DNA from: Promethearchaeota archaeon
GTDB lineage: Archaea > Asgardarchaeota > Lokiarchaeia > Sigyniarchaeales > SOKP01
NCBI GenBank assembly: GCA_048941285.1
Contig: JBHLNS010000014.1
Coordinates: 1 to 64,000, forward strand
Length of the DNA stretch: 64,000 nt
Reading direction: 5' to 3'
Shown in pieces: positions 39,979-56,962 of the stretch (position 1 is the stretch's first letter; the number at the start of each line of letters is the position of its first letter). Position numbers and translations under genes: made by a program. A model generated the notes under the pieces. It worked only from the letters and a program-made list of their open reading frames with translations, ran no database searches and was not told the origin of the DNA.

Positions 39979-41259
39979 ATGAAGAAGATTATTATATGTC
40001 TATTTTTAACTGCCTTTATTTTTTTTAGCTTTAATTCAATCTCGATATTTGTAAGGGCTGATACTGATTATTGGTATAGAGTATGGGGTGGAAACGGTCA
40101 TGATGAGTGTGTAGATATCGCATTAGATTCATCAAACAACATATACCTTGGAGGAATATTTGAAATGATTAGTGATTCTGGTAGTTATAGTACATTATGT
40201 CTTGTTAAATATGATAATACCGGTATTTATCAATGGAATAAGACCATTGGCAGCTCTTATAGAGGAGGTGTAATTACAATAGATTCATTTGATAATATTT
40301 TTTTAGCAGGTGAAATTTATAATCAAAACTCTAGCACTCATGATTTCATACTTGTAAAGTATGATCCTTCCGGAAATTACCAATGGAATAAAACCTGGGA
40401 TAGTGGAAACAATGATGTTTGTTACACTATTGCATTAGATTCGCTTGAAAATATTTACCTAGCAGGATCATCTATGACTGGACCAAATAATGAAGATTTT
40501 TGTCTCATTAAATATGATAATTTAGGAAATTATCAGTGGAATAGAACTTGGGGTGGACCTTCTAATGAAATATGCTGGGCTATTGCAATAGATTCATCAG
40601 ATAGTATTTATCTTGCAGGATATACTCAAAGTTACGGAGCAGGAAGTTCTGATATGTGTTTAGTGTCCTTTAATAGTACAGGAGATTTTCAATGGTATAA
40701 AACTTGGGGAAGCTATGAAGGGGATTCTTGTCAATCAATTGTAATTGATGCTTCAGAAAATATATACTTAGCAGGAAGTAGCTACAGCGAAGGATATTCA
40801 GATTTTTCTCTCGTCAAATATGATAAATTTGGGAATTATCAATGGAATAGAACTTGGGGTGGTAAAATATTAGATGAGGACTGCAACTCTATATTAATAG
40901 ATCCATCAGAAAATCTTTACCTTGCCGGAACTAAAGGTGTCCAATATTGCGTTGTTGTATATGATACCAATGGTACTTTTCATTGGGCTAAATCATTAAA
41001 ATTTTACCAGGGAGGTATTGCAACTGGAGTAGTTAGAGATCTAAATGGTAATATTTATGTAGGGGGGTTTATCTCTAAGAATTTAGCAAGTCGAGATGAT
41101 TTCTTACTGATTAAAAATCTACAGTTATTTCCTACCCAACAAATTAGTGGATATGGCATATTTATTCTAACAATGATAATCGGGATACTCTCATTTGTAA
41201 TTCTACTAAAAAGTAACCTTTTAAAAAATAAAAAAATAAAAAATAATTTAAACAATTAA
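39979..41259 (+). CDS. Secreted SBBP-type beta-propeller protein with Loki-CTERM-like anchor
   Basis: Signal peptide; repeats WNRTWGG...IAIDSS.NIYLAG...LVKYD..G; C-terminal ISGY + TM + Lys tail. Confidence 0.88.
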   Translation: MKKIIICLFLTAFIFFSFNSISIFVRADTDYWYRVWGGNGHDECVDIALDSSNNIYLGGIFEMISDSGSYSTLCLVKYDNTGIYQWNKTIGSSYRGGVITIDSFDNIFLAGEIYNQNSSTHDFILVKYDPSGNYQWNKTWDSGNNDVCYTIALDSLENIYLAGSSMTGPNNEDFCLIKYDNLGNYQWNRTWGGPSNEICWAIAIDSSDSIYLAGYTQSYGAGSSDMCLVSFNSTGDFQWYKTWGSYEGDSCQSIVIDASENIYLAGSSYSEGYSDFSLVKYDKFGNYQWNRTWGGKILDEDCNSILIDPSENLYLAGTKGVQYCVVVYDTNGTFHWAKSLKFYQGGIATGVVRDLNGNIYVGGFISKNLASRDDFLLIKNLQLFPTQQISGYGIFILTMIIGILSFVILLKSNLLKNKKIKNNLNN

Positions 41260-41337
41260 CATATCAGCTGAACTGTTTAATCCAAACTCTTCGCTTGTCT
41301 GATCAATTTCACAAGATTTGGCTTTTACTTTTAACAT
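41256..41337 (-). repeat. Degenerate copy of the first 82 nt of the HEAT-repeat gene (39506-39587)
   Basis: Ungapped hand alignment gives 68/82 identical. Translates MLKVKAKSCEIDQTSEEFGLNSSADMLIV* vs MLKVKLQPREIYQRSEEFGLENSANML. Confidence 0.85.
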
Positions 41338-41560
41338 AACCTATTTCTTAAGTCTAACGTTATAAAATAAAACATCTATTGAATTCTCAATTCCTCTCTG
41401 GATTATACCACTTACTATAATGATAATGAGAAAAGCAGAATTAAGACCAATTTAAAAACTATTAACCTTTTTTTTTAATAATTTTTTGCTGAAAAAAGAT
41501 AACTCAAATATAGTTATATTTATATTAGCTTGAATCAAATTTGATTTATCAAATTATTAA

Positions 41561-42307
41561 ATGAAAAGTATTATGACAATTCGTAATTCAATAAATAAAG
41601 CAAGGGCAAAAATGTATGAATTTGCTACTAACTTTAATGTTGTGAAAATTTCTGCTATGGTTGTGATGTTCGGATATATCTTATTACTCATTATTGGCGT
41701 GATTGTAGCAGCATTCCTTGATCCTGATGGATATACAATCTGGGATAACTGGATATCTGATCTTGGCTCAAATAATGATACTCCAGCTCCATACTTGTAT
41801 GATATAGCGTGTATTGTAGCAGGTTCTATGACTATCCCATTAACTTTCTATATGGAAAAATTACTTGCTCCATTACCCAAGAGAACTAAAATGAGAGGTG
41901 AACATTTTTCTCGATTGCGTTTTCGGTTAAGTAGTTATGCTTTCATTTTTAGCATTATTGGGAATTTTGGTTATATTGGGGTAGGAATCTTTAGTGCTGA
42001 TCGTGATTATGATTTCTTATCAGTTTTAGGAATGGGACCTCACGGCCTCATGTCATATCTCGCATTTGGTGGGTTTACTTTCGGAGCTTTCTTTATGGGT
42101 TGGTTAATTGTTTTATATGATACTAAAATTCCCAAAATATTGGGAATCTATGGAATATTTGGGCCTTTATTTGTTGCTATCTTAAATTTAATAGATAGTA
42201 CTCCTTTATTAGAATGGATGTTACTCTTTTCAATCCTAATATGGATAATTCCCCTTTCCCTCATTGTGTTAATGAAACCGGAGTTAATCCCCAAAAGAAC
42301 GGAATAA
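41561..42307 (+). CDS. DUF998-like membrane protein
   Basis: GYTIWDNWISDLG, GVGIFS, H, LEW; about 6 TM segments. Confidence 0.7.
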   Translation: MKSIMTIRNSINKARAKMYEFATNFNVVKISAMVVMFGYILLLIIGVIVAAFLDPDGYTIWDNWISDLGSNNDTPAPYLYDIACIVAGSMTIPLTFYMEKLLAPLPKRTKMRGEHFSRLRFRLSSYAFIFSIIGNFGYIGVGIFSADRDYDFLSVLGMGPHGLMSYLAFGGFTFGAFFMGWLIVLYDTKIPKILGIYGIFGPLFVAILNLIDSTPLLEWMLLFSILIWIIPLSLIVLMKPELIPKRTE

Positions 42308-42424
42308 AACAATAAAATTTTTCTATTTTTTTTTTACAATGAGATGTAAATTAATTTTAGTTGCTTTTTTCTTTATTGTAAAAGAAACTCTAAAAATTTA
42401 TTACAGAATTTGATATATCTATAA

Positions 42425-43042
42425 TTGATATTTATTTATTTTTTGAGTCAACTAGGTATTTTTAAGATGAGTAAGAAAAACAGTGAAAAAATTGACGTTA
42501 TTGCGGATGCAATTGAACAATCTATGAAAAAAGGCCATATTAGCACCTTAATATTATTAGCCTTGGAAAAGGGGCCTTCTCATGGTTATAGTTTAATGCA
42601 AACCATAACTGAGGATACATACGGAGTTTGGAATCCCACCGCTTCATCCTTATATCCACATCTTTCTTCCTTAACAGAAAAAGGGCTAATTGAGTTTACA
42701 ACAGAAATGGAAGGAAAAAGAGAGCGAAAAGTTTATGAAATTACTGAGAAAGGAAGAAAAACATTGAAGATGCTACTGGAAAGACAACAGAACATGCGGA
42801 AATCTCTACTTTCTATGATTATGTCAACTATCGGATTAACAAATTTAACCCTACCTAAGGATTTTGAAGATCTGTTTGGTCCAGATTTAATTGATGATGC
42901 AAGTTTAATTGGTAAGACTAAGGATGAAAAACTTAAGATTTTGTCGAAAAGAAAACTAGTTTTGGAAAAAATAGTCAATAAATTGGAAAATTTTGTAAAT
43001 GATCTTAATCAAAGAATTGAAAATTTAAAGTCCAAATATTAA
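42425..43042 (+). CDS. PadR-family transcriptional regulator (start likely ATG 42467)
   Basis: ILLALEKGPSHGYSLM...SLYPHL..L.EKGLI...RKVYEITEKG. Confidence 0.93.
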   Translation: MIFIYFLSQLGIFKMSKKNSEKIDVIADAIEQSMKKGHISTLILLALEKGPSHGYSLMQTITEDTYGVWNPTASSLYPHLSSLTEKGLIEFTTEMEGKRERKVYEITEKGRKTLKMLLERQQNMRKSLLSMIMSTIGLTNLTLPKDFEDLFGPDLIDDASLIGKTKDEKLKILSKRKLVLEKIVNKLENFVNDLNQRIENLKSKY

Positions 43043-43212
43043 ACTTAGTCCAATTCTTGACATTTCAATTAAAGAACTTCTTACATATTCATATTTATTT
43101 CTTTTTATTGGAAAAAATTTATATATCAGATTGTATATATATTTATTGTAGATATATAATCTAAGAATATATCAGTCACTTACATATTAAAAATTTGCTT
43201 TAGAATCATATT

Positions 43213-44244
43213 TTGTTAAAAATTAAGGTGATTAATCAATTGAAAGTTTTATTAACTGGAGCATTTGGCAATGTTGGTTTAAGTACTTTAAAAGAGTTGC
43301 TTAAGAGAAATCATGATATAAGAGTTTTTGACATTAGAACTAAAAAAAATAAAAGACTTGCTAACAAATATAAGAAAGAGATAGAAATTGTTTGGGGAGA
43401 TCTGAGAGATTATAGCTGTGTAGAAAAAGCTGTTTCTGACAGAGATGTGGTTATACATGTTGCTGCGATTATTCCTCCTCTTGCCGATAAAAAACCAAAA
43501 TTCGCAGAATCTATAAATGTGGGAGGTACCGCTAATATCATTGAAGCAATAGAAAAGCAACCTAAAAAACCAAAATTGATCTTTACATCTTCAATTGCAG
43601 TTTATGGAGATAGACTTGAAAATCCTCTGATAAGGCCGAAAGATTCACCAAATCCTAATTCAGATGACGAATATGCTAAACAAAAATTAAAATGTGAAGA
43701 ACTAATAAAAAAATCTAATTTGGAATGGGCAATCTTTAGATTAACTTATATTGTATCATTAAATAAACTGCAGATGGATCCTTTAATGTTTGAAATGCCA
43801 CTTAATACATCTATCGAAATTTGTGATACAAATGATGTTGGCTTAGCTCTTGCTAATGCTGTTAATTGTGAAGAAATCTGGGGAGAGATTTTGCATATTG
43901 CTGGTGGAGAAAGATGTCGCATTTCATATCGAGAATATCTTAATGAAATGCTCGATATTTTTGGTATTGGTTTTGAAGAATTACCTGAAGAAGCTTTCAG
44001 GCAAGATAGGGGTTTTCACTGCGGTTTCATGAATACAGATAAAAGTCAAGTACTTCTAAATTATCAAAGATATACGCTCGATGATTACTTCGCTGCAGTA
44101 AGGAAAAAAGTAGCATTTTCACGTTTTTTTACTACGATGTTTAAACCAATTGCTCAAAAGTTTCTATTAAACAAATCTCATTATTATAAAGAATCTCTAA
44201 ACAGTCATCTTTCAGAATCAAAAAATTACTTGAGGAAGCTTTAA
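43213..44244 (+). CDS. NAD-dependent epimerase/dehydratase (extended SDR; start likely TTG 43240)
   Basis: VLLTGAFGNVG, HVAA, SSIAVYG, YAKQK (YxxxK). Confidence 0.92.
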   Translation: MLKIKVINQLKVLLTGAFGNVGLSTLKELLKRNHDIRVFDIRTKKNKRLANKYKKEIEIVWGDLRDYSCVEKAVSDRDVVIHVAAIIPPLADKKPKFAESINVGGTANIIEAIEKQPKKPKLIFTSSIAVYGDRLENPLIRPKDSPNPNSDDEYAKQKLKCEELIKKSNLEWAIFRLTYIVSLNKLQMDPLMFEMPLNTSIEICDTNDVGLALANAVNCEEIWGEILHIAGGERCRISYREYLNEMLDIFGIGFEELPEEAFRQDRGFHCGFMNTDKSQVLLNYQRYTLDDYFAAVRKKVAFSRFFTTMFKPIAQKFLLNKSHYYKESLNSHLSESKNYLRKL

Positions 44245-44461
44245 AAGCAGTTAATAAAGAAATGGTTTATTACTCAGATATCGAGGGCTATAAAGGATCT
44301 ATTGAAGTTTGGAGTACCTGGCAAGAAGGATTTGAAGCTTTAGGTATACAAATTCCCGACTTATAATCCCAAAAAAATACAATAATAATTTAATATTTTT
44401 TTTTAATCTAATAACTTCATTTTTTAATATAAAAATCAAATTTCTAAACTAAAATGTTTAA

Positions 44462-44660
44462 GATCAATCACAAATGTATTGATCATTGACTTTTTCCAAA
44501 ATTAAATAGTCAAGAATCTTCAATCTGGTTAAAAATTGTTTGATGTTGTGACCGCTTTACAAATATTTGATTATATCGATTAACAGAAAGTATTAAAAAT
44601 ATTGAAAATGAATAAATTTTAAAAAAAAATATTTAAAATTGATCTTAACAAATAGATCAA
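44462..44660. promoter_or_regulatory. Two GATC-containing inverted repeats upstream of the hdr cluster
   Basis: GATCAAT-N9-ATTGATC at 44462-44484 and TTGATCT-N8-AGATCAA at 44639-44660. Confidence 0.4.
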
Positions 44661-44749
44661 TATTGGAAATTAAAAACCATTCAATAAAAATCTAAGAAAT
44701 TTATTAATATACAATAATGTAAAAGCTAGAGGTGGATGTGTAAGAATAG

Positions 44750-46693
44750 ATGAGTAATACTGAAAATCATCGGATTGGATACTATGCTTGTCAATGAGGT
44801 GTAAATATTAGAACGAAAGTTGATTGCGATGAATTAACTGAGTTCGTGAAAAATCTCGGTGATGAGATTATAATTTCAAAGAAAAATCCATTTCTTTGAA
44901 CTGATAATGCTCAGAATGAAATTATAGAAGATATCAAGGAAAAGAACTTAAATAGAATTGTGGCATCAGCTTGAACCCCACGTACACATGAAGTAATTTA
45001 TAGAGGTACTATTGCTAAAACAGATTTAAATCCATACTATTTTCAAATGGTAAATGTCCGTGAACACTGTTCATGGTGTACAGACAGCAAAGAAGAAGCC
45101 ACAAAAAAAGCGAAAATTCTAGTGAAAAGCGGTATCGAAAGAGTGAAGCGATTAGAGACAGTTCCCATCAAAACGGTCCCGGTTACTAAAGCTACATTAA
45201 TTGTAGGAGGTGGAATCGCAGGGATGAATGCAGCTTTAGATCTAGCAAATCAAGGTATTAAGGTTTATTTGGTTGAACAAAAAACCACTATAGGAGGAAG
45301 AATGTCTCAATTGGATAGAACTTTTCCAACAGATGACTGTGCAATATGAATTTGTGGTCCTAAAATGTTAGAGGTCAATAGAAATGAAAATATTGAATTA
45401 TTAAGTTTTAGTGAAGTAAAGAAAATTGAAGGATATGTTGGAAATTATAACGTAACAATCGAGAAGAAACCACGATATACAACAGACGAATGTAATGGGT
45501 GTGGAGCTTGTGCTGAAGTATGCCCTGTCTATACAACAAATTATTTCGACGAAAATTTAGGTGCTCGAAGAGCAATTGATATCCCCTTTGGTCAAGCAGT
45601 ACCATTTCTATACGATATAGATAGAAATGCATGTATAGAATGCTTCTCTTGTGTGGATGCTTGCGAATTAGATGCTATTGATTTTAGTCAAGAACCACAG
45701 GAACTAAATGCTGAGGTGGGAACAGTAATTATAGCAACAGGTTGGGATATATATGAACCTTTTGGTGAATACGGATATGGAGAATTCGAAAATGTTATCA
45801 CTCAAGTCCAGTTAGAACGAATATTGGCTCCAAATGGACCTCTTGAAGGTCATGTGCACCGAATTTCAGATAATAAGAAACCTAAGGAAATTGTATTTAT
45901 ACAATGTGTCGGAAGTCGTGAAACAGAAAGAACTTATTGTAGTGGTGTGTGTTGCATGCTTGCATTAAAAAATGGTCGATTGTTGCTAGAAGAATTTCCT
46001 GATGCAAACATTACAATTTGTTATATTGATATAAGAACTCCTGAAAAAGGATTCGAGGAGTATTATGATAGAGCTAAGGAAGCAGGTATTACTATGATTC
46101 GTGGAAAGGTGGGTGAGATCTCTGAAGATCCTGAAACTAAAAATGTGAAAGTACGTGTATATTCCTCTTTAACAGATAAGATTGTAATAATTGACGCAGA
46201 TTTAGTAGTATTGTCAACAGCAGCTCTTCCTTCTAAAGGTAGTCAGCAAATCATAGATATTTTAAATCTTGATACTAACGCATATGGATTTCTTACGGAA
46301 TCACATTTCGGTTTATTACCACAAGAAACAAAATCAAAAGGAATTTTTATAGCAGGGTTTGCTCAAGGTCCTAAAAACATTTCCTATTCTGTTTCTCAAG
46401 CTAGAGCAGCAGCTAGCAAAGTTGCTGAACTCACGGCGCCCGGAGAAATTGATATTGAACTCATCACTGCTGAAGTTGATAGTGAATTTTGTATTTCATG
46501 TCGACGATGTGAAAAACAATGCCCCAAAAATGCCATTAGGATTGAAAAAGAAACCGGAGCTTTTATTGATGAGATAAATTGCGATGGCTGTGGTATATGT
46601 GCTACATGCTGCCCTACTCAAGCTATTGATATAAGATACTATAGAGATTATCAGTTATTTGCAGAAATTGATGGTCTTTTAGGAGGTGATTAA
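44750..46693 (+). CDS. hdrA: Heterodisulfide reductase subunit A, selenoprotein with 4 in-frame UGA (647 aa)
   Basis: One frame from ATG 44750 (GAGGTGG upstream) through the tracked ORFs 45047 and 45365. TGA at 44795 (ACQ-U-G), 44897 (PFL-U-TD), 44972 (ASA-U-TPRTHE) and 45347 (DCAI-U-ICGPKM) align to Cys in paralogs (CHCG, NLYSCS, ASCTPRTHE, DCAICILAPK). Confidence 0.93.
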
Positions 46694-46699
46694 ACACAC

Positions 46700-47161
46700 A
46701 TGGTGTACAATTACAATTTAATTGTTTTTGCCTGTTTAAAGTGAGGATATAGTGCAGCTGATTTAGCAGGAGTTTCTCGATTAAAATATACTCCGGCGGT
46801 TAAAATCATAAAAGTAAGATGCACTGGTCGAGTTGATGTTAAACATATTTTCTATAGTATTCGTGCGGGAGCTGATGGAGTTATGGTTGTTGGTTGACGC
46901 CCAAACGAGTGTCAATTTAAAAATGGTAATTTCACGGCTCAAAGACATATAGATTTAGCAAACAGAATCTTGGAATCTCGTGGTTTCGGAGATCAAAGAA
47001 TAAACATGTATTGGTTAAGTGGAGCAGAGTCAGAGAAATTTGTGAAAAGTGTTGAAGATGCTTTAGGAAAGGTTGAGAAAGCTGGGCCAAATCCACTTAA
47101 CTTAGAAGAAACGTCACCAAAAATAAAACAAAAACAAGTAATAACTACCCCTGCAGAATGA
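46700..47161 (+). CDS. mvhD: MvhD/VhuD [2Fe-2S] subunit, selenoprotein with 2 in-frame UGA (153 aa)
   Basis: ATG 46700 after AGGAGGTGA; MVYNYNLIVFACLK-U-GYSAADLAG...RCTGRVD...VVG-U-RPNECQF. TGA at 46742 and 46895 match CNWCSY and GCHPGDC of the paralogs. Confidence 0.93.
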
Positions 47162-47214
47162 TTCTTATAAACAAATTCTAGTTATAAGAAGACTAACCTT
47201 GCAAAGGAAGGGGT
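47147..47214 (+). promoter_or_regulatory. Eukaryote-like SECIS element (AUGA...GA core)
   Basis: ATGA (47158-61), TTCTTATAA, loop ACAAATTCTAG, TTATAAGAA, GA (47191-92): perfect 9-bp stem with AAA in the loop. Possible lower stem ACCCCT (47147-52) / AGGGGT (47209-14). Confidence 0.85.
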
Positions 47215-47277
47215 TTTTAAATAGTATTCAATTAAAAGTTAAAATGTAATAAAAATGTAATCCAAAAGGGTGGAAAT

Positions 47278-48780
47278 ATGGTTCAGATTTCAAAAAATCA
47301 TAATTTTAATGGAATATCTCCAAAGATTTTGATGGATGCTACCTACAAAGCAGTTGAGAATTTTCAGATTAGAGCATTTTTTGAGGCAAAAGATGACATT
47401 TTGAATACTGGTAAATATTCTGAAGATGAATTTTATGAAATTCTGGATTCGATGATAGATGCTGAAACAGAACGTAAATTAGTGTTACAAACATTAACTG
47501 GTAAAGAACCGTTATTTTTAGATGAAATTGCTAGATTATTAAAAGATTTTCCTCAAGAAAACGCAATTCGAGATGTCATATATTTGAAAGAACAAGGATA
47601 TATTGAAGAACTAATCGAAGTAAAAAGTAAAACTGTCATTAAAAAAATCAAGGGAGAAGAGAAAGAAGTAGAGGAAAAAGAATATTTGTATAGATATCAA
47701 GTTAAGGATAAAGCTTATGATTTTATTGAGCATTTTTTTGAACCTGTTTCTATTGTGTTTGATTCTGAAGTATGTTGTCAGTGTGGTTGGTGCTCATCAA
47801 TTTGCCCAGTAAATGCAATTTCAGTGACAGCAGATACTTTAGAAATAGATGATGTAATTTGTATGAAATGTGGCTTATGTTATTCTGTTTGTCCGAGATC
47901 ATTTTCAATTGAACAAGCGGGCAAAAATATAAATAAACTTGATAAATCTTTAAAATTTTCAGAAGAAATTAACGGTTATATTAGTACTTATTCGGCTACA
48001 ACCATTAAGGATGAGATTAAAAAAGTAAGACAGGATGGAGGGATTGTAACGTCTCTCCTTGAATACCTCCTAAAAAATAAACTAGTTGATGCAATTGTAG
48101 CAGTACAACATTCAAAGGAATTATGGAAACCAGAGCCCATTATCATAGAAGATGTTAAAGATTTGTACAAAACTAGTGGAACAAAATATGCTAACGCCTC
48201 AACTTTAAGTATAATCGCTGATACTAAAAAGTACGAAAATATTGCGGTTGTAGGTGTTCCTTGCATGATGAACGCTCTCAAAAAGGGGATTTTATTCCCG
48301 AGCGGATTACCTTTTTTCAAGAACATTAGATATAGAATTGGGCTTTTTTGCATGGAATCCTTTCCCTATAACGGTGTTCTTAACTTAATTAAAGAACAAT
48401 TTAAAAAAGATTTTAATAAAGTTACAAAAATGGATATAAGTGGAGGTAAATTTATCATTTACTTAGATTCTGGCGAGGACTTAAACGTACCTTTAAAAGA
48501 AGTTAAATCATATGCTCGGCATAATTGCCATTATTGTGAGGATTTAACTGCTGACTATGCCGATATTTCTGTGGGATCAATTGGGTCCCCTAGCGGTTGG
48601 TCTACAGTAATTACTCGGAATAAAGAAGGTGAAAAAATCTATAAAGAAGCAATTGAGGCAGGGCTAATAGAATCTAAGAATTTAAAAGACGTTAAACCTG
48701 GACAACCTTTATTAGAAAGGATTGCTGGAACCAAAAGAAAAGATTGTAAACCTATTATATTGGAAAAAAAACAAGAATGA
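47278..48780 (+). CDS. FrhB-family F420-binding subunit with N-terminal winged-helix-like domain
   Basis: CCQCGWCSSICP, CMKCGLCYSVCP, QDGGIVT, VGVPC, IGLFCMESF, CHYCEDLTADYADISVGSIGS. Confidence 0.9.
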   Translation: MVQISKNHNFNGISPKILMDATYKAVENFQIRAFFEAKDDILNTGKYSEDEFYEILDSMIDAETERKLVLQTLTGKEPLFLDEIARLLKDFPQENAIRDVIYLKEQGYIEELIEVKSKTVIKKIKGEEKEVEEKEYLYRYQVKDKAYDFIEHFFEPVSIVFDSEVCCQCGWCSSICPVNAISVTADTLEIDDVICMKCGLCYSVCPRSFSIEQAGKNINKLDKSLKFSEEINGYISTYSATTIKDEIKKVRQDGGIVTSLLEYLLKNKLVDAIVAVQHSKELWKPEPIIIEDVKDLYKTSGTKYANASTLSIIADTKKYENIAVVGVPCMMNALKKGILFPSGLPFFKNIRYRIGLFCMESFPYNGVLNLIKEQFKKDFNKVTKMDISGGKFIIYLDSGEDLNVPLKEVKSYARHNCHYCEDLTADYADISVGSIGSPSGWSTVITRNKEGEKIYKEAIEAGLIESKNLKDVKPGQPLLERIAGTKRKDCKPIILEKKQE

Positions 48781-48791
48781 AATAATCCTAT

Positions 48792-50090
48792 TTGGATTTA
48801 ACTAAGGGAGTGAGATCTATAACAGAAACAGAAAAACAAAAAAAATCGAAACAAATTACTGAGGATACAGATTTTCTTATAAGAAAAATATATAAATCAG
48901 ATCTCAGAAATTTATTGAAAAAATGCTATCAATGTGCTCGTTGTTCTGGTGTATGTCAAATTAGTAAAGTTCAAAAATTTACTCCCAGTAGAATTATCCA
49001 GATGATCTTAGAAGGATTTGAAGATGATATAATTAAGAGCGGAGTGTTATGGGATTGTTTAATGTGCAATAGCTGCCTTCAAATGTGCCCCAAAGACATA
49101 AATTTTGCGGATATTGTACGAATTGCTAGATATAAAATGAGGATGCTAGATATTCAAAATCTTGATCGTTCTATTGCCCATAAAGGCATTTATACCATGA
49201 TGTCAGAATTAATGAGTCAAAATAATATTAAAATCGAAAGGCCTTTAGATTGGGTACTAAAAGGGTGCAAAATTTCAGAAAGAGGTAATATTTTATATTA
49301 TGTAGGGTGTTTACCCTTTTTTGGTTTTGAATTTGAAAATTCAACTTCTATAGCAGAAAGTACACTGAAACTTATTTATAAACTCGAGAAGGAGCCAATA
49401 GTAGTTCTTAAAGAAGAAACATGTTGTGGCCATGATTTGTATTGGGGTCAAGCAAAATTCGAAGCCTTTATTGACCTGGCTAAGAAAAATGTAAATAAGT
49501 TTGAAAAAGCAGGGGTTTCAACAATAATAACAGCATGCGCTGAATGTTATAGAACATTTAAAATTGATTATCCAAATTTATTTGAAGATTTTAATGATAA
49601 ATTTGAAGTTAAACATATTATTGAATATATTTTTGATAATTGGAAACAAGGTAAAGTTCAGTTTAAGAAACCAAATGAATCCAATGAGGCTATTCATTTC
49701 ACTTATCACGATCCTTGTAGATTAAGTAGGTATTTACCTAAAGAAAATAATATAATTGAAGAAGTTAGAGAACTATTTTATCATTTGGAAACAATAGGTT
49801 ACGTTTTTAAGGAAATGGAGCATAATAAAAAAAATTCATATTGTTGTGGAGTTAATTCTTGGATGAATTGTAATGAAAGATCCAAAGCTTTGCGATATAA
49901 GCGTCTTTCAGAAGCTAAAGCTGTTGGAACTAAATTGATCACCTCATGTCCGAAATGTAGAATGCATTTAAATTGCTTAAAAAAGGATTATGATGAGTTT
50001 GCTTCAATGGAAATAATAGATTTTTCAGATTTTCTATGCGATATAACAGATATAATAAATTCCGATAATAAGATTGAGGTTAAAGGATAA
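48792..50090 (+). CDS. HdrD-like Fe-S oxidoreductase (HdrC-like ferredoxin plus two CCG domains)
   Basis: CYQCARCSGVC, CLMCNSCLQMCP, YVGC, TCCG, TACAEC, YHDPC, YCCG, TSCPKC. Confidence 0.88.
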   Translation: MDLTKGVRSITETEKQKKSKQITEDTDFLIRKIYKSDLRNLLKKCYQCARCSGVCQISKVQKFTPSRIIQMILEGFEDDIIKSGVLWDCLMCNSCLQMCPKDINFADIVRIARYKMRMLDIQNLDRSIAHKGIYTMMSELMSQNNIKIERPLDWVLKGCKISERGNILYYVGCLPFFGFEFENSTSIAESTLKLIYKLEKEPIVVLKEETCCGHDLYWGQAKFEAFIDLAKKNVNKFEKAGVSTIITACAECYRTFKIDYPNLFEDFNDKFEVKHIIEYIFDNWKQGKVQFKKPNESNEAIHFTYHDPCRLSRYLPKENNIIEEVRELFYHLETIGYVFKEMEHNKKNSYCCGVNSWMNCNERSKALRYKRLSEAKAVGTKLITSCPKCRMHLNCLKKDYDEFASMEIIDFSDFLCDITDIINSDNKIEVKG

Positions 50091-53000
50091 TGGAGGGTTC
50101 TGTATTAGTTATTGGTGGTGGAATAGCTGGTATACAAACTTCTTTAGATTTAACTGAACTTGGTTTTAAAGTGTATTTAGTAGAAAAAACACCGTCAATA
50201 GGCGGCAGGATGGCTCAGCTCGATAAAACCTTTCCTACTTTAGATTGTAGCCTATGTATTCTTGCTCCTAAAATGGTGGAAGTGTTCAGAAATCCAAATA
50301 TTGAATTAATGACATATCATGAAATTAAGAAGGTTTCCGGAGATACAGGAAATTTTACTGTTTTAGTACTTAAAAAGCCTCGGTATATTGATGAAACAAA
50401 ATGTAAAGGTTGTGGGCAATGCAGTGAGAAATGTCCCAAAATAGAAGTACCTAATTATTTTGATATGAATTTAGGCAAAAGAAAATCTGTATACATCCCA
50501 TTTCCTCAAGCAGTACCTCCCGTATACTTAATCGATCCAGAATTATGCTTAAAGCTCACTAAAGGAGTTTGTGGTGTATGTGAGAAAGTTTGTAGCGCCG
50601 AAGCCATAGATTTCGAACAAAAGCCTCAAGAAATCGAATTAAATGTCGGAGCTATTGTAGTTGCTACTGGTTTTGATATGTTTGGAGAGGAACTAGCATC
50701 TCGATGGGGTTATAACTTCGAGAATGTGATAAATGGGTTAGAATATGAGAGAATTTTATGCGCATCTGGGCCATTTGATGGCCATGTTATACGCCCAAGT
50801 GATAAAAAGGAACCAGAAAACATTGCCTTTATTCAATGTGCCGGTTCAAGAGATTTACAGCAACGAGTTCCTTATTGTTCTAGTGTATGTTGCATGTATG
50901 CTGCTAAAGAAGCTATTATCACAAAAGAACACTCAGAGCATTCCAAATGTTTTGTTTTTAGACATGATATTAGAGCCTATGGGAAAAATTTCTATGAATT
51001 TACTCAAAAAGCTCAGGAAGAATATGGCGTAAAATACTTCCATACCAAAGTTAGTAAAATCATAGAAGATCCTGAAACAAATGATTTAATAATTCATTAT
51101 GAAGATTTACAATCTGGATTACTTAATAGTTTCCGTGCAAATTTAGTTGTTTTAGCAACACCGCTAGTTCCTTCTAATGGAACTAAAGTGTTAGCAAATA
51201 TCTTAGATATCAACTTAGACGAATATAATTTCTTTAAAGAAAAAAATCACTTTACAAAATCAATATCTTCAAAAAAAGGTATTTTCTTAGCTGGATTTTG
51301 TCAAGGTCCAATGGATATACCAGAAACTGTAGCAGATGCTAGTGGGGTAGCTTCCCAAGTAGCAGCTTTACTCAGCTCTGCAAAATACACCCAAATAAAA
51401 GAGAAAGTATTTGAAATACCAGAAAAAGAAGTTGATTTAACAGAAGAACCTAGAATTGGAGTACTGATCTGTCATTGTGGTATTAATATTGGTAAATATA
51501 TTGATATTCCTCAAGTTGTAGAAACTGTAAAATCATTGCCAAATGTAATTTTTTGTGAAGATAATTTATATTCATGCTCTAGTGATTCTCAAACAAGAAT
51601 TAAAGAAGTAATTAGTGAGTATAATTTAAATAGATTTATTGTGGCATCCTGTACACCAAGAACACATGAATCTTTATTTCAAGAAACTTGTCAAGAAGCT
51701 GGATTAAATAAATATCTTTTTGAAATGGCAAATATTCGCGATCAATGTTCCTGGGTTCACATGACAGAGAAGGATCTTGCTACTGAGAAAGCTATAGATT
51801 TAATTGAAATGACGGTTGCTAAATCAAGATTATTAAGATCGCAGCAAGAACCAAAATTATCAGTAATATCAGAGGCATTAATAATTGGTGGCGGTATCTC
51901 TGGAATGACTGCTGCACTGAATATTGCTAATCAAGGATATCCAGTTTATCTTGTAGAAAAAGAGAAGATTCTTGGAGGAATTTTAAATGATTTATATCTC
52001 TTATATCCAACTCAAGAAGATGCTTCAAACTTCTTAATAGAGACAATAGAAAATGTTGAGAAGAATAAAAAAATTCAAGTGTATTTAGAGTCTAGTGTAA
52101 AGGATGTAAAAGGATATCTTGGTAATTATCATGTCTCAATTATTAACTCCAAAAGCCAAGTAAATGAATTGAGTGTTGGAGTAATTATCGTTGCTACTGG
52201 GGCTCAAGAGTTAAAACCTCTAGGATTTAGTCAATACAATGATAATAACAACAATGTTATTACAGAAATGGAATTAGAAAAGCGATTGAATAATAAAGAT
52301 CACTCTTGGCTTGATAAAATTAAAAGAGTCACAACTATTTTATGTGTAAATGCGAGAGAAAAACAAGGAATTACATACTGTTCTAATATCTGTTGTGCAA
52401 CTGCCATTAAAAATATGAATATCTTAAAAGAGTTAAAATCAGATTTGGAAATGATTGTTCTTTATAGGGATTTTCAAATGGCTAAAAAAGAATTTGAAGA
52501 ATATCTTTTTGATAGAAGAAGAGATGCCATACTTCTAAGATACGATTTGACTAGACCACCAGAAATAAAAAAGATCAATAATAAATCTGAGAAATATGAG
52601 ATAAATGTATTTGATACGAATTTACAGGATATTATTACCTTTGAAACAGATCTAATTATTTTATCTCCACCCATGATTCCCTCAGACAATTCAGATTTAT
52701 TAGCAAAAATGCTTAAAGTACCTTTAGATAGACATGGTTTTTTCTTGGAGGCACATGCTAAATTACGACCAGTAGATTTTGCTACAGACGGAATATTTTT
52801 ATGTGGGTGTGCTCATTGGCCGAAGCATATTCAGGAATCAATCACGCAAGCAAATGGTGCTGCGGGGAGAGCGAGCAGATTTTTGAGCTCAAAGGATATT
52901 ATTTCCTCTGGGTTAGTAGCAGAAATTAATAGTGAATTATGCGTTGGATGTAAAGTATGTATGAAACTTTGTCCTTATAATGCTATATCTAAGAACGAGG

Positions 53001-53140
53001 ATAATATAGTAATTATAAATAAGTTGCTTTGTAAGGGATGTGGTGTGTGTGGTGCAAGTTGTCCGGAAAATGCTATAATTGTATATCATTTTACAAATGA
53101 GCAAATTCTATCAGAAATTATTGCTTATGGAGGAGAATAA
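50090..53140 (+). CDS. hdrA: Large HdrA-family flavoprotein with two FAD modules (Cys form)
   Basis: Two GGGIxG FAD motifs, DKTFPTLDCSLC, QCAGSR, CHCG, CTPRTHE, FFLEAH.KLRP, ferredoxin motifs. Confidence 0.92.
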   Translation: MEGSVLVIGGGIAGIQTSLDLTELGFKVYLVEKTPSIGGRMAQLDKTFPTLDCSLCILAPKMVEVFRNPNIELMTYHEIKKVSGDTGNFTVLVLKKPRYIDETKCKGCGQCSEKCPKIEVPNYFDMNLGKRKSVYIPFPQAVPPVYLIDPELCLKLTKGVCGVCEKVCSAEAIDFEQKPQEIELNVGAIVVATGFDMFGEELASRWGYNFENVINGLEYERILCASGPFDGHVIRPSDKKEPENIAFIQCAGSRDLQQRVPYCSSVCCMYAAKEAIITKEHSEHSKCFVFRHDIRAYGKNFYEFTQKAQEEYGVKYFHTKVSKIIEDPETNDLIIHYEDLQSGLLNSFRANLVVLATPLVPSNGTKVLANILDINLDEYNFFKEKNHFTKSISSKKGIFLAGFCQGPMDIPETVADASGVASQVAALLSSAKYTQIKEKVFEIPEKEVDLTEEPRIGVLICHCGINIGKYIDIPQVVETVKSLPNVIFCEDNLYSCSSDSQTRIKEVISEYNLNRFIVASCTPRTHESLFQETCQEAGLNKYLFEMANIRDQCSWVHMTEKDLATEKAIDLIEMTVAKSRLLRSQQEPKLSVISEALIIGGGISGMTAALNIANQGYPVYLVEKEKILGGILNDLYLLYPTQEDASNFLIETIENVEKNKKIQVYLESSVKDVKGYLGNYHVSIINSKSQVNELSVGVIIVATGAQELKPLGFSQYNDNNNNVITEMELEKRLNNKDHSWLDKIKRVTTILCVNAREKQGITYCSNICCATAIKNMNILKELKSDLEMIVLYRDFQMAKKEFEEYLFDRRRDAILLRYDLTRPPEIKKINNKSEKYEINVFDTNLQDIITFETDLIILSPPMIPSDNSDLLAKMLKVPLDRHGFFLEAHAKLRPVDFATDGIFLCGCAHWPKHIQESITQANGAAGRASRFLSSKDIISSGLVAEINSELCVGCKVCMKLCPYNAISKNEDNIVIINKLLCKGCGVCGASCPENAIIVYHFTNEQILSEIIAYGGE

Positions 53141-53918
53141 ACACTTGGTATTTAGACCGAAAATTTTAGGATTTTTATGTAATTGGTGTTCTTATGCTGG
53201 AGCTGATCTTGCTGGTGTTAGCAGAGTACAATATTCTCCTAATATTAGAATAATTAGGGTAATGTGCAGCGGTAGAGTTGATCCTATTTTTGTAGCTGAA
53301 GCTTTCTCAAAAGGAATTGATGGAGTACTTGTATTAGGTTGTCACCCTGGAGATTGCCACTATATTAGCGGCAATTATGAAGCAGAAATGAAAATGAATA
53401 TGTTAAGTAAATTATTAGATTATATTGGATTTTCTGAACGCTTTCGGTTAGATTGGGTCTCAGCATCCGAGGGAAATAGATTTGCCCAACTTGTAAATGA
53501 ATTTAATGAACTTATAATCAATTTAGGGCCTTCTCTAATTAATAATAAAAAATTAAAAAAACCGTTATCTGACGATTTTGATATAATTAAATCAGTATTA
53601 GCCGAGTCTAGAATTAGGACTTTAGTCAGTAGAGAAAGGATAATCACTACTGAGGGTAATGTATATAATGAAATAATATCAAAAGACGAATTTGAAGATA
53701 TTATTGATGATAGTCTATATAAAGAATTCATTCGTCATAAAATAATACAAAAAATTAAAAAAAAGAGCAAATCAGTTCCAGAAATATCTAAAGAGATACA
53801 AGTTAAGCCAAATGAAGTATTAAATCATATTATAACTCTAAGACAAAGAGGTTTAGTTGATCTTGATGAAATACATGAAGAAATTCCAACATTCAAATCA
53901 ATTAAGGAGGAAAAATAA
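53127..53918 (+). CDS. mvhD: MvhD-family subunit with C-terminal winged-helix extension (Cys form; ATG 53127 preferred to tracked start)
   Basis: LCNWCSYAGADLAG, VMCSGRVD, GCHPGDCHY, WVSASEG; C-terminal SVPEISKEI...LRQRGLV. Confidence 0.9.
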   Translation: MEENKHLVFRPKILGFLCNWCSYAGADLAGVSRVQYSPNIRIIRVMCSGRVDPIFVAEAFSKGIDGVLVLGCHPGDCHYISGNYEAEMKMNMLSKLLDYIGFSERFRLDWVSASEGNRFAQLVNEFNELIINLGPSLINNKKLKKPLSDDFDIIKSVLAESRIRTLVSRERIITTEGNVYNEIISKDEFEDIIDDSLYKEFIRHKIIQKIKKKSKSVPEISKEIQVKPNEVLNHIITLRQRGLVDLDEIHEEIPTFKSIKEEK

Positions 53919-56900
53919 TGGAAAAGGTTGGTGCTGTCTTAGTTGTAGGGGGAGGAATTGCTGGGATTCAATGTTCTATAGATTTAGCAGATTCAGGTTA
54001 TAAGGTTTATTTAGTCGAATCCACGACAAGTATAGGAGGTGTAATGTCTCAATTAGATAAGACATTTCCAACTAATGATTGCGCAATATGCATTCTTGCC
54101 CCAAAATTGGTACAAACAGGGCGCCATGAGAACATTGATATTTTGATAAATTCAACTATAAAAAAAATAGATGGAGAACCAGGCAATTTCATTATTGATT
54201 TAACTCAAAAAACACTATATTTGGATCAAGATAAATGTACTGGTTGTGGTCTTTGTGCTCAAAAATGTCCAATAGAAGCAATAGATACATTTAATAAAGG
54301 ACTTTCAAACAAAACAGCTATTTCTGTTAAATTCCCTCAAGCTGTTCCTTTAGTTTTTTCTATCAATAGAAATAAATGTATAGGTTGTGGTGTTTGCGAA
54401 GGGATATGTAAAGCTGAAGCAATAAATTATGCACTTAAAGATAAAGATATACGGCTTAATGTAGGGGCAGTCGTACTTGCAACTGGGTTTGATGAATACA
54501 ATCCAACTCCTCTAACTCAACTTGGTTATGGTAAACATTTAAATGTCATTACTAGTACTGAATTTGAACGGATATTGAGTGCAAGTGGACCACATGCAGG
54601 TTTAATACTCCGACCGTCTGATGGAATTATTCCAAGAAAAATAGCGTTCTTACAATGTATTGGTTCAAGAGATAAACAGTATGGTGTTGATTATTGTTCT
54701 TCTGTATGTTGCATGTATTCTACAAAAGAAGCAGTTATTGCTAAGGAACATATGAATATAGTAGAACCTACTATTTTTACTATGGATATTCGAGCATACG
54801 GAAAAGATTTTGATAAATATATTGAACGAGCAAGAGAAGAGTATGGTGTAAGATTTATAAGACGGAGAATATCTACAATTAAAGAGATTCCAGATTCTAA
54901 GGATCTAAGAGTATTTTACGAGACAGAAAATGGAAGAATTATTAATGAAACTTTTAACTTAGTAGTCTTATCAGTAGGAATGCGACCTAATAAAAAAGCA
55001 GAAGAAATAGCAAAAAAATTAAATATCGAATTAAATGAGTATGGTTTTTGTAAAACTAACCATTTTAATCCAGTAGAAACTTCGAGATCAGGAATTTATG
55101 TATGTGGAGCGTTTGCAGCACCAAAAGATATTCCAGAAACGGTTATCGAAGCTAGTGCAGCTGCAGGAAGTGTGAATGTTCTCCTTTCGGATGTGAGAAA
55201 TCAATTAATAGCTAGAAAACAACTTCCAGAAGAAATCGATGTATCTGATCAGCCACCTCGAATAGGTGTATTTATTTGTCATTGTGGAATAAATATAGGT
55301 GGAGTTGTCAACGTTCCTGAAGTGGTTGAATATGTTAAAACTTTGCCTAATGTAGTTTATGCCGAGCATAATTTATATACTTGTTCTGCAGACACTCAAA
55401 CTGGCATTAAAGAAAAGATAGAAATAAATAAATTGAATCGAGTTATAGTCGCTTCATGCACTCCAAGAACGCATGAACCTTTATTTCAAGAAACAATAAG
55501 AGAAGTTGGCTTAAACAAATATCTTTTTGAAATGGTTAACATTCGAGATCAATGTTCATGGGTTCACATGCATGAAGCTGAAAATGCGACTTTAAAAGCA
55601 AAAGATTTATTGAGAATGTCAGTAGCGAAGGCGAGACAACTAATTCCTTTACAAGAACAAGAAATTAATGTCATAAGTAAAGGTTTAGTTATAGGCGGAG
55701 GTGTATCTGGAATATCTGCTGCTTTAAATCTTGCTTCTCAAGGCTTTAAGGTCTTCTTAATTGAAAAGGAAGACTCTCTAGGAGGATTTGCTAAAAATAT
55801 TTATCGAACGCTTGAAGGTGACGATGTCCAAAAATATCTTAAGAATTTAATTGAAAAAGTTGAGAATAATCAACAAATTAAAGTCTTCAAAAATACTCGA
55901 ATTAATTCAATAACAGGATACATTGGAAATTTTACTACTAATATAAATTATGGAAAAAATAACGAAAATGTTGATCTTGAACATGGAATAATTATTGTAG
56001 CAACCGGAGCAGAAGAATATCACCCTAAAGAATATAATTATGGAAAGGATCATAGAATTATTCCCCAAACTGATTTTGAAAATCTTCTTTTCGCTACTCC
56101 AGATAAAATAAAAGAATTAAATTCAATAGTTATGATTCAATGTGTCGGCTCTAGAAATGAAGAACATCCCTATTGCAGTAGAATTTGTTGTTCCGAAGCT
56201 ATTAAAAATGCTTTAAAAGCAAAAGGAATTAATCCTAATTTAGAAATAATTATATTATATCGTGATATTAGAACCTATGGATTTAAAGAGAAATATTATA
56301 ATCAAGCAAGAGAAATTGGAGTATTATTCATTAGATTTGATGAAAAAAATCCTCCCGAATTAAATAGTAAAAATAAAAAGCTAAAGCTCTTAATAAATAA
56401 TCCTGATTTAGGAGAAATTGAGATAAATCCCGATATACTTATACTAAGCACAGGATTAATAGCACCTAGAAAAGAGAATGAAGATTTAGCAAAGATGCTA
56501 AAGGTGCCTCTTAATGAAGATAAATTCTTTTTAGAAGCCCACGTTAAATTAAGACCAATTGATTTTGCTACTGATGGTATTTTTTTATGTGGATGTGCTC
56601 ATTCACCTAAAAATATTAAAGAATCAATTACTCAGGCGAATGGAGCTGCAGCTCAGGCAGTCAAAATTCTTTGCTCTGAAAAGATTGTGACTTCTGGTCT
56701 TGTTGCTACTGTAATAGAAGAAAATTGCATCGGATGTGGAAGTTGTGTTGAGGTTTGCCAATTTAACGCTATAGAATTAATAGAGAAAGAAAGAACGTTT
56801 GAAGACTTTACTATTAAAATTAAGAAATCTCATGTTAATTCTGCTCTCTGTAAGGGATGTGGTACTTGTGGTGCTCAATGCCCTAATTCAACAATAGTTA

Positions 56901-56962
56901 TAAAACATTTTGGTTTTGAACAAATTAATGCAATGATTTCTGCTCTATTAGTCCAAAATTAG
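53918..56962 (+). CDS. hdrA: Large HdrA-family flavoprotein with two FAD modules (Cys form)
   Basis: Same architecture as 50090-53140: DKTFPTNDCAIC, QCIGSR, CHCG, CTPRTHE, QCVGSR. Confidence 0.93.
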   Translation: MEKVGAVLVVGGGIAGIQCSIDLADSGYKVYLVESTTSIGGVMSQLDKTFPTNDCAICILAPKLVQTGRHENIDILINSTIKKIDGEPGNFIIDLTQKTLYLDQDKCTGCGLCAQKCPIEAIDTFNKGLSNKTAISVKFPQAVPLVFSINRNKCIGCGVCEGICKAEAINYALKDKDIRLNVGAVVLATGFDEYNPTPLTQLGYGKHLNVITSTEFERILSASGPHAGLILRPSDGIIPRKIAFLQCIGSRDKQYGVDYCSSVCCMYSTKEAVIAKEHMNIVEPTIFTMDIRAYGKDFDKYIERAREEYGVRFIRRRISTIKEIPDSKDLRVFYETENGRIINETFNLVVLSVGMRPNKKAEEIAKKLNIELNEYGFCKTNHFNPVETSRSGIYVCGAFAAPKDIPETVIEASAAAGSVNVLLSDVRNQLIARKQLPEEIDVSDQPPRIGVFICHCGINIGGVVNVPEVVEYVKTLPNVVYAEHNLYTCSADTQTGIKEKIEINKLNRVIVASCTPRTHEPLFQETIREVGLNKYLFEMVNIRDQCSWVHMHEAENATLKAKDLLRMSVAKARQLIPLQEQEINVISKGLVIGGGVSGISAALNLASQGFKVFLIEKEDSLGGFAKNIYRTLEGDDVQKYLKNLIEKVENNQQIKVFKNTRINSITGYIGNFTTNINYGKNNENVDLEHGIIIVATGAEEYHPKEYNYGKDHRIIPQTDFENLLFATPDKIKELNSIVMIQCVGSRNEEHPYCSRICCSEAIKNALKAKGINPNLEIIILYRDIRTYGFKEKYYNQAREIGVLFIRFDEKNPPELNSKNKKLKLLINNPDLGEIEINPDILILSTGLIAPRKENEDLAKMLKVPLNEDKFFLEAHVKLRPIDFATDGIFLCGCAHSPKNIKESITQANGAAAQAVKILCSEKIVTSGLVATVIEENCIGCGSCVEVCQFNAIELIEKERTFEDFTIKIKKSHVNSALCKGCGTCGAQCPNSTIVIKHFGFEQINAMISALLVQN

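Follow-up and report, generated by a model that had tools for sequence, protein, structure and literature searches.

The selenocysteine insertion sequence (SECIS) elements of Lokiarchaeota, termed lokiSECIS, were described as an AUGA motif followed by a stem of 9 base pairs (bp), a loop of 11 nucleotides (nt) that is A-rich in its first five positions and ends in AG, and a closing GA or AA (Mariotti et al., 2016, Mol Biol Evol, PMC4989117). The main text of that study reports that eukaryotic, archaeal and bacterial SECIS tools returned no match to these elements, and that pairs of HdrA and VhuD genes share a single element located after VhuD, for as many as six UGAs distributed over ~2 kb. HdrA stop codons were never UGA; those of VhuD included UGA, with close proximity to the element precluding their recoding, and in VhuU.1 the AUGA itself constituted the stop codon (PMC4989117). 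A later survey, which covered hundreds of Asgard genomes, reported that hdrA and frhD/vhuD are always neighbors with one common element, that UGA stops often overlap AUGA, and that the elements conform to an Asgard eSECIS-like type I model consisting of a lower stem, an internal loop, an AUGA_GA or AUGA_AA core, and an apical loop (Huang et al., 2024, ISME J, PMC11227280). Among proposed cases of long-range recoding, the SECIS shared by hdrA and vhuD is the most extreme, with many UGAs in two open reading frames (ORFs) assigned to one element, and it constitutes the main evidence linking archaeal and eukaryotic selenocysteine (Sec) decoding. The present analysis concerns such an element in a stretch of 64,000 nt from a Promethearchaeota archaeon (GenBank contig JBHLNS010000014.1, positions 1 to 64,000; hereafter the window).

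In the window, comparative analysis gives a lone, covarying element whose overlap with a stop codon is conserved. To judge from sequence, it is probably a lokiSECIS whose AUGA/GA kink-turn core resembles that of eukaryotes, positioned 3'-terminally on a bicistronic mRNA of hdrA and vhuD and serving all six in-frame UGAs of the pair. Since this arrangement has been known for Lokiarchaeota from a 2016 publication and was extended in 2024, its appearance here is a rediscovery, a further well-documented instance and not a discovery. The additions made here are modest and comprise a three-helix model of the element, the strongly kept overlap of the vhuD stop codon with the core, and gene pairs with seven UGAs.

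The hdrA-vhuD Pair and the Element at Its 3' End

The reading frames of hdrA and vhuD (also called mvhD), both on the forward (+) strand, were taken with TGA read as U (Sec). The hdrA gene (44750..46693) encodes 647 amino acids, terminates at TAA (46691-93), and contains UGA at codons 16, 50, 75, and 200 (44795-97, 44897-99, 44972-74, and 45347-49); its product carries FAD/NAD-binding and Fer4 domains (Pfam). The vhuD gene (46700..47161) encodes 153 amino acids, terminates at UGA (47159-61), and contains UGA at codons 15 and 66 (46742-44 and 46895-97), bringing the tally for the pair to four plus two, or six; its product matches PF02662 FlpD/MvhD at 140 bits (Pfam). All four U positions of HdrA align to cysteine (Cys) in a Cys-type HdrA paralogue of the same window (53918-56959), as do the two of VhuD in a Cys-type MvhD-fusion paralogue (53079-53915). 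The genes are separated by 6 nt (46694-46699), and a Shine-Dalgarno-like site, GGAGGTGA / GGAGGUGA (46682..46689, +), within the final hdrA codons is the putative vhuD ribosome-binding site. The first hdrA UGA lies 2363 nt upstream of the AUGA core.

The core is formed by AUGA (47158..47161, +), which is the 5' half of a GA/AG quartet and whose UGA is the vhuD stop, and by GA(C) (47191..47193, +; GA = 47191-92), the 3' half. Between them, helix II pairs 47162-70 (TTCTTATAA) with 47182-90 (TTATAAGAA) through 9/9 Watson-Crick pairs and carries an 11-nt apical loop, ACAAATTCTAG / ACAAAUUCUAG (47171-81), of the pattern ACAAA...AG, with an A-rich start and an AG end. Two codons past the core UGA, the frame meets a UAA at 47168-70 (reading TGA TTC TTA TAA), which doubles as the top of helix II, where it pairs with UUA. 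Beneath the core, a predicted helix I joins CCCCU (47148..47152, +), located in the final vhuD codons (Thr-Pro), to AGGGG (47209-13, +), and a predicted mini-hairpin, helix III, consists of CCU, the loop UGCAA, and AGG (47197..47207, +); RNAalifold delineated both helices in each of two alignments. A run of five U residues (47214-18, +) directly follows helix I and is likely an archaeal transcription stop. The window element matches all published lokiSECIS features. An initial annotation of the window had read the AUGA, a perfect 9-bp stem, an AAA-containing loop, and the GA at the end of mvhD, and these are directly visible at 47158-47192; the same is true of its in-frame UGA terminator followed by UAA two codons on and of its 6-nt gap between the genes. 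The likeness that it drew between the SECIS elements of Lokiarchaeota and the eukaryotic AUGA/GA type is borne out by the presence of helix I, an internal loop, the quartet, helix II, and the A-containing loop.

Conservation and Covariation of the Element

From a VhuD search over 154 genomes of the same order, the 30 best loci were taken, all of which have two TGA codons in frame, and the element was found in 30/30 of them, in 28 with the strict pattern and in two with loops of 12 or 10 nt; all 30 sequences were distinct. RNAalifold predicted three helices from the alignment of these orthologues. Paired states filled 95.6% of the alignment cells vs 89.9% after shuffling, a value attained in 0/500 shuffles, and pairing fell to 47-66% when partners were slid. 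Changes on both sides affected 8/16 pairs, including 2/4 in helix I and 5/9 in helix II.

A covariance model built from the 30 orthologues (R1) gave 3-10 matches per genome in 26 genomes of the genus, from which 60 nonorthologous matches were retrieved for alignment, together with six from the genome that contains the window. The paralogue set comprised 65 elements outside the training data of R1 and was aligned separately with MAFFT. RNAalifold returned the same three helices from this alignment (n=65), with 90.0% of cells paired vs 71.7% in shuffled alignments (0/500 as high). Both-side changes occurred in 16/18 pairs, which included 5/5 in helix I, 9/9 in helix II, and 2/4 in helix III, the remaining two helix III pairs being invariant C-G. 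The pair beside the GA/AG quartet was noncanonical in 25/65 paralogous elements, which would fit the noncanonical stem of a kink-turn. Conservation and covariation of the hairpin, which the initial annotation had left to be checked, were thus found in the orthologues and recurred among the paralogues, and the alignments indicate that the element is more than a chance hairpin.

An alignment of 95 matches, from which a broader covariance model (R2) was built, defines the common features of the element. The 5' side of the core was AUGA in 93 and GUGA in two; the 3' side was GAC in 75, GAU in 13, and AAC in seven, so that the dinucleotide was GA in 88/95 and AA in 7/95. The apical loop measured 11 nt in 90/95, with G as its final base in 92/95, A as its penultimate base in 93/95, and at least four A residues among the first five in 90/95. 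Downstream, the layout runs from GA-C through a short linker, the mini-hairpin, and 1-3 bases to the 3' strand of helix I, which is 4-5 bp long and closes the structure. Helix III, on the 3' side of the internal loop, has the genus consensus CC(N)-NGNRA-(N)GG, with a GNRA ending to its loop in 78/95 elements and a loop of 5 nt in 82/95. A run of at least four T residues immediately follows helix I in 26/30 orthologues vs 10/65 paralogous elements.

A Single lokiSECIS-Like Element in the Locus

Scanned against the 64-kb window with filters off, R1 gave one match (47142-47226, 110.4 bits, E 9e-27), and its runner-up, at 15.1 bits (E 0.34), is without the core. R2 under the same settings likewise gave one match, at 96 bits, with a runner-up of 16.9 bits (E 0.19) at 250-335 on the other strand; neither model had any match inside 44750-47141. 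Across 32 orthologous loci, which total 97.8 kb and reach ~500 nt upstream of hdrA, scanning with filters off revealed exactly one element, always after vhuD, in 32/32, and the only other match had an E value of 0.78. In terms of these models, the window element is the only one of the lokiSECIS kind in the hdrA-vhuD locus. The statement in the initial annotation that no other such hairpin lies nearby therefore stands for the whole window; no additional lokiSECIS-like element, which would have spoken against sharing, appeared in or upstream of hdrA in the window or in the 32/32 orthologous loci. Its proposal that one 3' element serves six UGAs in two cistrons is supported by the computational tests available.

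Models of eukaryotic SECIS elements are present in Rfam. No SECIS family of Rfam matched at E <= 10 within 40000-52000, or within 47120-47240 searched alone, in line with the failure of existing SECIS tools on lokiSECIS elements (PMC4989117); matches to RybB, snoRNAs, U4, mir-208, and others lay far under the gathering scores and were regarded as noise. A pattern match at 53668-53707 falls inside the Cys-type MvhD-fusion ORF, which lacks TGA, received no score from R1 or R2, and was judged to be a chance occurrence. Beyond the family, R2 had no match in 5/5 genomes from three other families of the order, in a scan that had no positive control there.

Overlap of the vhuD Stop Codon With the AUGA Core

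Stop codons were surveyed in the window and in 40 relatives, 41 loci in all, of which one ran off the end of its sequence, leaving 40 to be counted. In 33/40 loci, vhuD terminates on the UGA of the AUGA core (GUGA in one case), so that the overlap seen in the window, which the initial annotation had suggested be checked in orthologous loci, is widely kept. In two further loci the scan found no core, and inspection by eye placed an AUGA right after the UGA stop; in three, the core lies 3-18 nt downstream of the stop, and in two distant loci no core was seen in this survey. For hdrA, termination is on UAA or UAG in 39/40 loci, as expected if a UGA at that position would be recoded; the exception is a distant, unclear fragment. 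Reading by hand, a second stop occurs exactly two codons past the core UGA in 28/33 overlap loci (27 UAA, 1 UGA), three codons on in 2/33, and farther in 3/33. As the UAA forms the top of helix II, its presence does not require selection for a backup stop.

Gaps between hdrA and vhuD range from 2 to 22 nt across loci, or the genes overlap, and the distance from the first hdrA UGA to the AUGA is 2345-2452 nt in full-length cases. Most orthologues keep the four hdrA UGAs at identical positions, with the proteins ~90% identical. As many as five UGAs are present in hdrA, and three pairs (L113, L130, and L134) have 5 + 2 = 7 in-frame UGAs, one above the ‘up to six’ given in the main text of the 2016 paper (PMC4989117).

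The stop codon also lies within the element in a family of VhuD-like paralogues with the protein C terminus ...KKKTE; there, the stop is the UAG of a conserved UAGAAUGA just 5' of the core, at an offset of -4 (L038, L040, L058, L063, and eight others). A stop inside the SECIS thus occurs in several gene families and is not special to the vhuD of the window. A separate observation concerns hdrA itself: in L099, L101, L104, and L105, related insertions of 34-39 nt occur at two nearby sites (codons ~100-108; ~45055-45075 in window coordinates) of genes that are otherwise ~90% identical. The insertions introduce a stop in L101 and L105 and a frameshift in L099 and L104; each contains a small hairpin, and three end in CAAAAU and that of L105 in CAAUAU. 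Internal SECIS elements, bulge-helix-bulge introns, and bypass sites were considered for these insertions, none of which fit by eye, and R2 had no match in them.

Proposed Mechanism and Alternative Explanations

In the mechanism proposed here, the folded element would recruit the Sec-specific elongation factor and Sec-tRNA-Sec, either directly or via a kink-turn-binding protein, and the recruited factors would reach any ribosome paused at a UGA on the same mRNA, as far as 2363 nt upstream and in either cistron. The core UGA would be read as a stop because the arriving ribosome would have unwound helix I and would cover helix II, leaving no folded SECIS; a minimal-distance rule for UGAs near a SECIS has been argued (Mariotti et al., 2016, PMC4989117). 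Any readthrough would be caught by the UAA two codons on, and the U-run past helix I would end the transcript. A further suggestion, that termination on vhuD melts the element and thereby gates recoding, is plausible physically, because a ribosome stopping at 47159-61 must open helix I and would cover helix II.

Several observations weigh against a SECIS shared by the two genes. A lokiarchaeal SECIS was reported to be nonfunctional in Methanococcus maripaludis (Peiter et al., 2025, PMC11881835). R1 and R2 detect only lokiSECIS-like elements, and the compared genomes are close kin, such that the counts given above overstate independent support. Contigs from metatranscriptomes leave 47147-47400, which includes the SECIS, and most of hdrA uncovered. 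The fold energy of the single sequence has a z of -2.0, with 7/200 shuffles equally good, and the pattern by itself (ATGA, 9 bp allowing up to one mismatch, 11 nt, GA) occurs ten times in the genome vs 9-17 times in five Markov-shuffled genomes, which is no enrichment. The hairpin alone is consequently weak evidence, and covariance models were used as the test in place of the bare pattern.

The models’ restriction to lokiSECIS-like elements leaves room for an arrangement in which the 3' element serves vhuD only and the hdrA UGAs depend on internal signals of another kind, to which R1 and R2 are blind, such as bacterial-style hairpins immediately 3' of each UGA or a euryarchaeal SECIS of the GAA_A type; a stand-alone hdrA on contig C67 does own a SECIS directly past its stop. 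This arrangement is nonetheless improbable, considering that no Rfam SECIS family matched in 40000-52000 at E <= 10, that 32/32 orthologous loci lack a second element, and that RNAz was reported in the main text of the 2016 study to find no other conserved structure (Mariotti et al., PMC4989117). The first three hdrA UGAs also fall within 180 nt and have no evident common hairpin, a point judged without a formal test. Somewhat less improbable, although still unlikely, is decoding of the core UGA for a part or most of the time, by Sec insertion or near-cognate readthrough, in which case the terminator would be the UAA at 47168-70 and VhuD would acquire the tail Sec-Phe-Leu. The stop located exactly two codons on in 28/33 overlap loci does resemble a maintained backup, yet an RNA constraint on the top of helix II can explain the UAA, and the two intervening codons (F/I/L/V/S, then L) change in step with the covariation of helix II and show no indication of constraint on the protein. 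In addition, a ribosome with the core UGA in its A site would have unwound the element, as is established in eukaryotes for the minimal UGA-SECIS spacing (PMC4989117).

Sharing of the element also presupposes one mRNA. Were hdrA and vhuD transcribed separately, the hdrA mRNA would have no SECIS, its product would be truncated or nonfunctional, and sharing would reduce to mere adjacency. Promoters within hdrA are possible, and a sigma-70 promoter and intrinsic-terminator scan, which flagged nothing at the element, is inapplicable to archaea. Yet the 6-nt gap, the Shine-Dalgarno-like site inside hdrA, the retention of the same four UGA positions in most orthologues at ~90% protein identity, and the UAA or UAG stop of hdrA in 39/40 loci make separate transcripts very unlikely. 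The metatranscriptome contigs, from four runs of one study, include one RNA-library contig of 292 nt that spans the hdrA-vhuD junction (46441-46732) with two differences; it is a weak hint of co-transcription, as DNA carry-over is possible, and it bears in the same limited way on the separate transcripts that the initial annotation had named as one finding that would speak against its proposal. Least credible of all is a hairpin that has no role in Sec insertion and solely terminates transcription, affects mRNA stability, or offers a generic kink-turn (L7Ae) site. Kink-turns have many uses, and the U5 run lies directly past helix I, as in 26/30 orthologues, but a T-run follows just 10/65 paralogous elements, and all seven elements that R2 finds in the genome trail TGA-containing ORFs. 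The invariant AUGA and GA, the fixed geometry of 9 bp and 11 nt, and the A-rich loop are not features of terminators.

A Three-Helix Junction and Its Relation to Known Elements

The alignments predict that the element folds as a three-helix junction supported by covariation, with the 5' strand of helix I inside vhuD. A minimum-free-energy fold of the single sequence instead pairs CUGCAG with UUGCAA, which is without support in the alignments; these favor helices I and III. The main texts of PMC4989117 and PMC11227280, as distinct from their figures and supplements, contain no mention of the internal-loop hairpin, and a literature search for a SECIS with a three-way junction or GNRA arm produced nothing relevant among the matches listed, which does not prove the arm to be new to the literature. 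It is conceivable, although doubtful, that the SECIS of this lineage works as a three-way junction whose third arm braces the kink-turn through a tertiary contact or docks an Asgard SECIS-binding factor. If so, the arm might explain the reach of the element, up to seven UGAs in two cistrons over 2.4 kb, and it might explain the failure of the Loki SECIS in Methanococcus; with the vhuD stop inside the core, the complex would be reset whenever a ribosome terminates. As a matter of speculation, a minimal hairpin that lacked helices I and III could have contributed to the failure in a heterologous host, and constructs for reporter or structural studies are best made with the full three-helix junction, including its coding part.

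Comparison with the lokiSECIS of 2016 reveals the same core, stem, and loop, a lone element after vhuD, a short same-strand gap, and multiple Sec residues at Cys positions. It differs in that the AUGA-stop case given in the main text is VhuU.1, whereas here it is vhuD in 33/40 loci, and in that the lower helix and the 3' mini-hairpin found here are not mentioned there (PMC4989117). The Asgard eSECIS-like model is described in its main text as having, when families are compared, no highly conserved bases in either the lower stem or the internal loop (PMC11227280), while a conserved hairpin is present within the genus studied here.

The eukaryotic type I SECIS shares the AUGA/GA quartet, unpaired A residues in the loop, helix I under the internal loop, and action at a distance from the 3' side. 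Its stem is longer than the 9 bp of lokiSECIS (PMC4989117), and the present element differs further in its extra internal-loop hairpin, its overlap with coding sequence, and its lack of an Rfam model match; SBP2, moreover, is not known in Archaea. The VhuD SECIS of Methanococcales and Methanopyrus belongs to the same gene, occupies the same 3' position, and has AUGA opposite GAC/AAC, flanked by the main stem and an additional lower one (PMC4989117), as do the GAC/AAC elements here (82/95); unlike them, it retains the GAA_A bulge and a GC-rich upper stem. Selenoprotein P and other multi-Sec mRNAs resemble the hdrA-vhuD pair in that several UGAs are decoded over a long range from 3' SECIS elements (PMC4989117), although Selenoprotein P employs two elements for one ORF, and one element is proposed here for two ORFs. 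With respect to kink-turns, the sequence motif alone is seen in the window; tandem sheared G.A pairs, which kink the helix, and binding by the L7Ae family are features of the known systems.

Sec Machinery and Other Elements of the Genome

At E <= 1e-4, R2 identifies seven elements in the genome that contains the window, all 3' of ORFs with in-frame TGA and either 4-37 nt past the ORF end or overlapping it. These ORFs are the hdrA-vhuD pair, a second vhuD, a stand-alone hdrA, a peroxiredoxin-like gene, and three small ORFs without a Pfam match. The genome also encodes tRNA-Sec and SepSecS (376 bits); the tRNA-Sec gene (G000:C52 88257-88349, complement) lies ~200 nt from the SepSecS gene (86888-88045) on the same strand. 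The stand-alone hdrA (L037:329-2362, - strand) encodes 678 amino acids with two UGAs and has its own AUGA...AA-type SECIS 14 nt past its stop (G000:C67:9242-9327), with no vhuD between.

Many SECIS elements of the genus trail small ORFs that have one in-frame UGA and no Pfam match, such as L036:271-501 (-), L034:942-1154 (+), L033:304-639 (-), and relatives among L039-L094. In one group, an N-terminal K/R-rich segment precedes one membrane helix and a Gly/Asp-rich linker, and U stands beside C or G (GGxUGC); in a second group, U lies between two membrane helices. An ORF of 112 amino acids carries two adjacent UGAs. A homologue search with a candidate selenoprotein of 77 amino acids returned only its own truncated form of 48 amino acids. 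The main text of Huang et al. (2024, PMC11227280) lists seven selenoprotein families for Asgard archaea; the small ORFs belong to none of them and may be candidates for new selenoprotein families.

Neighboring Genes

The hdrA-vhuD pair heads a large redox cluster at 47278-56962. A short segment just past the U-run (47219-47240, AAATAGTATTCAAT...) is near-identical in many orthologues of the same genus, in a comparison made without a count, while the flanking coding sequence is ~20% diverged; this segment may be the promoter of the frhB-like gene at 47278. That gene, which is next after vhuD, encodes an FrhB/FdhB-like protein (47278-48780; Pfam) and is followed by one for an HdrD-like CCG-domain protein (48792-50090; Pfam). 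The remainder of the cluster consists of two Cys-type double-HdrA fusions of ~1015 amino acids each (50090-53140 and 53918-56962) and the Cys-type MvhD fusion (53079-53918).

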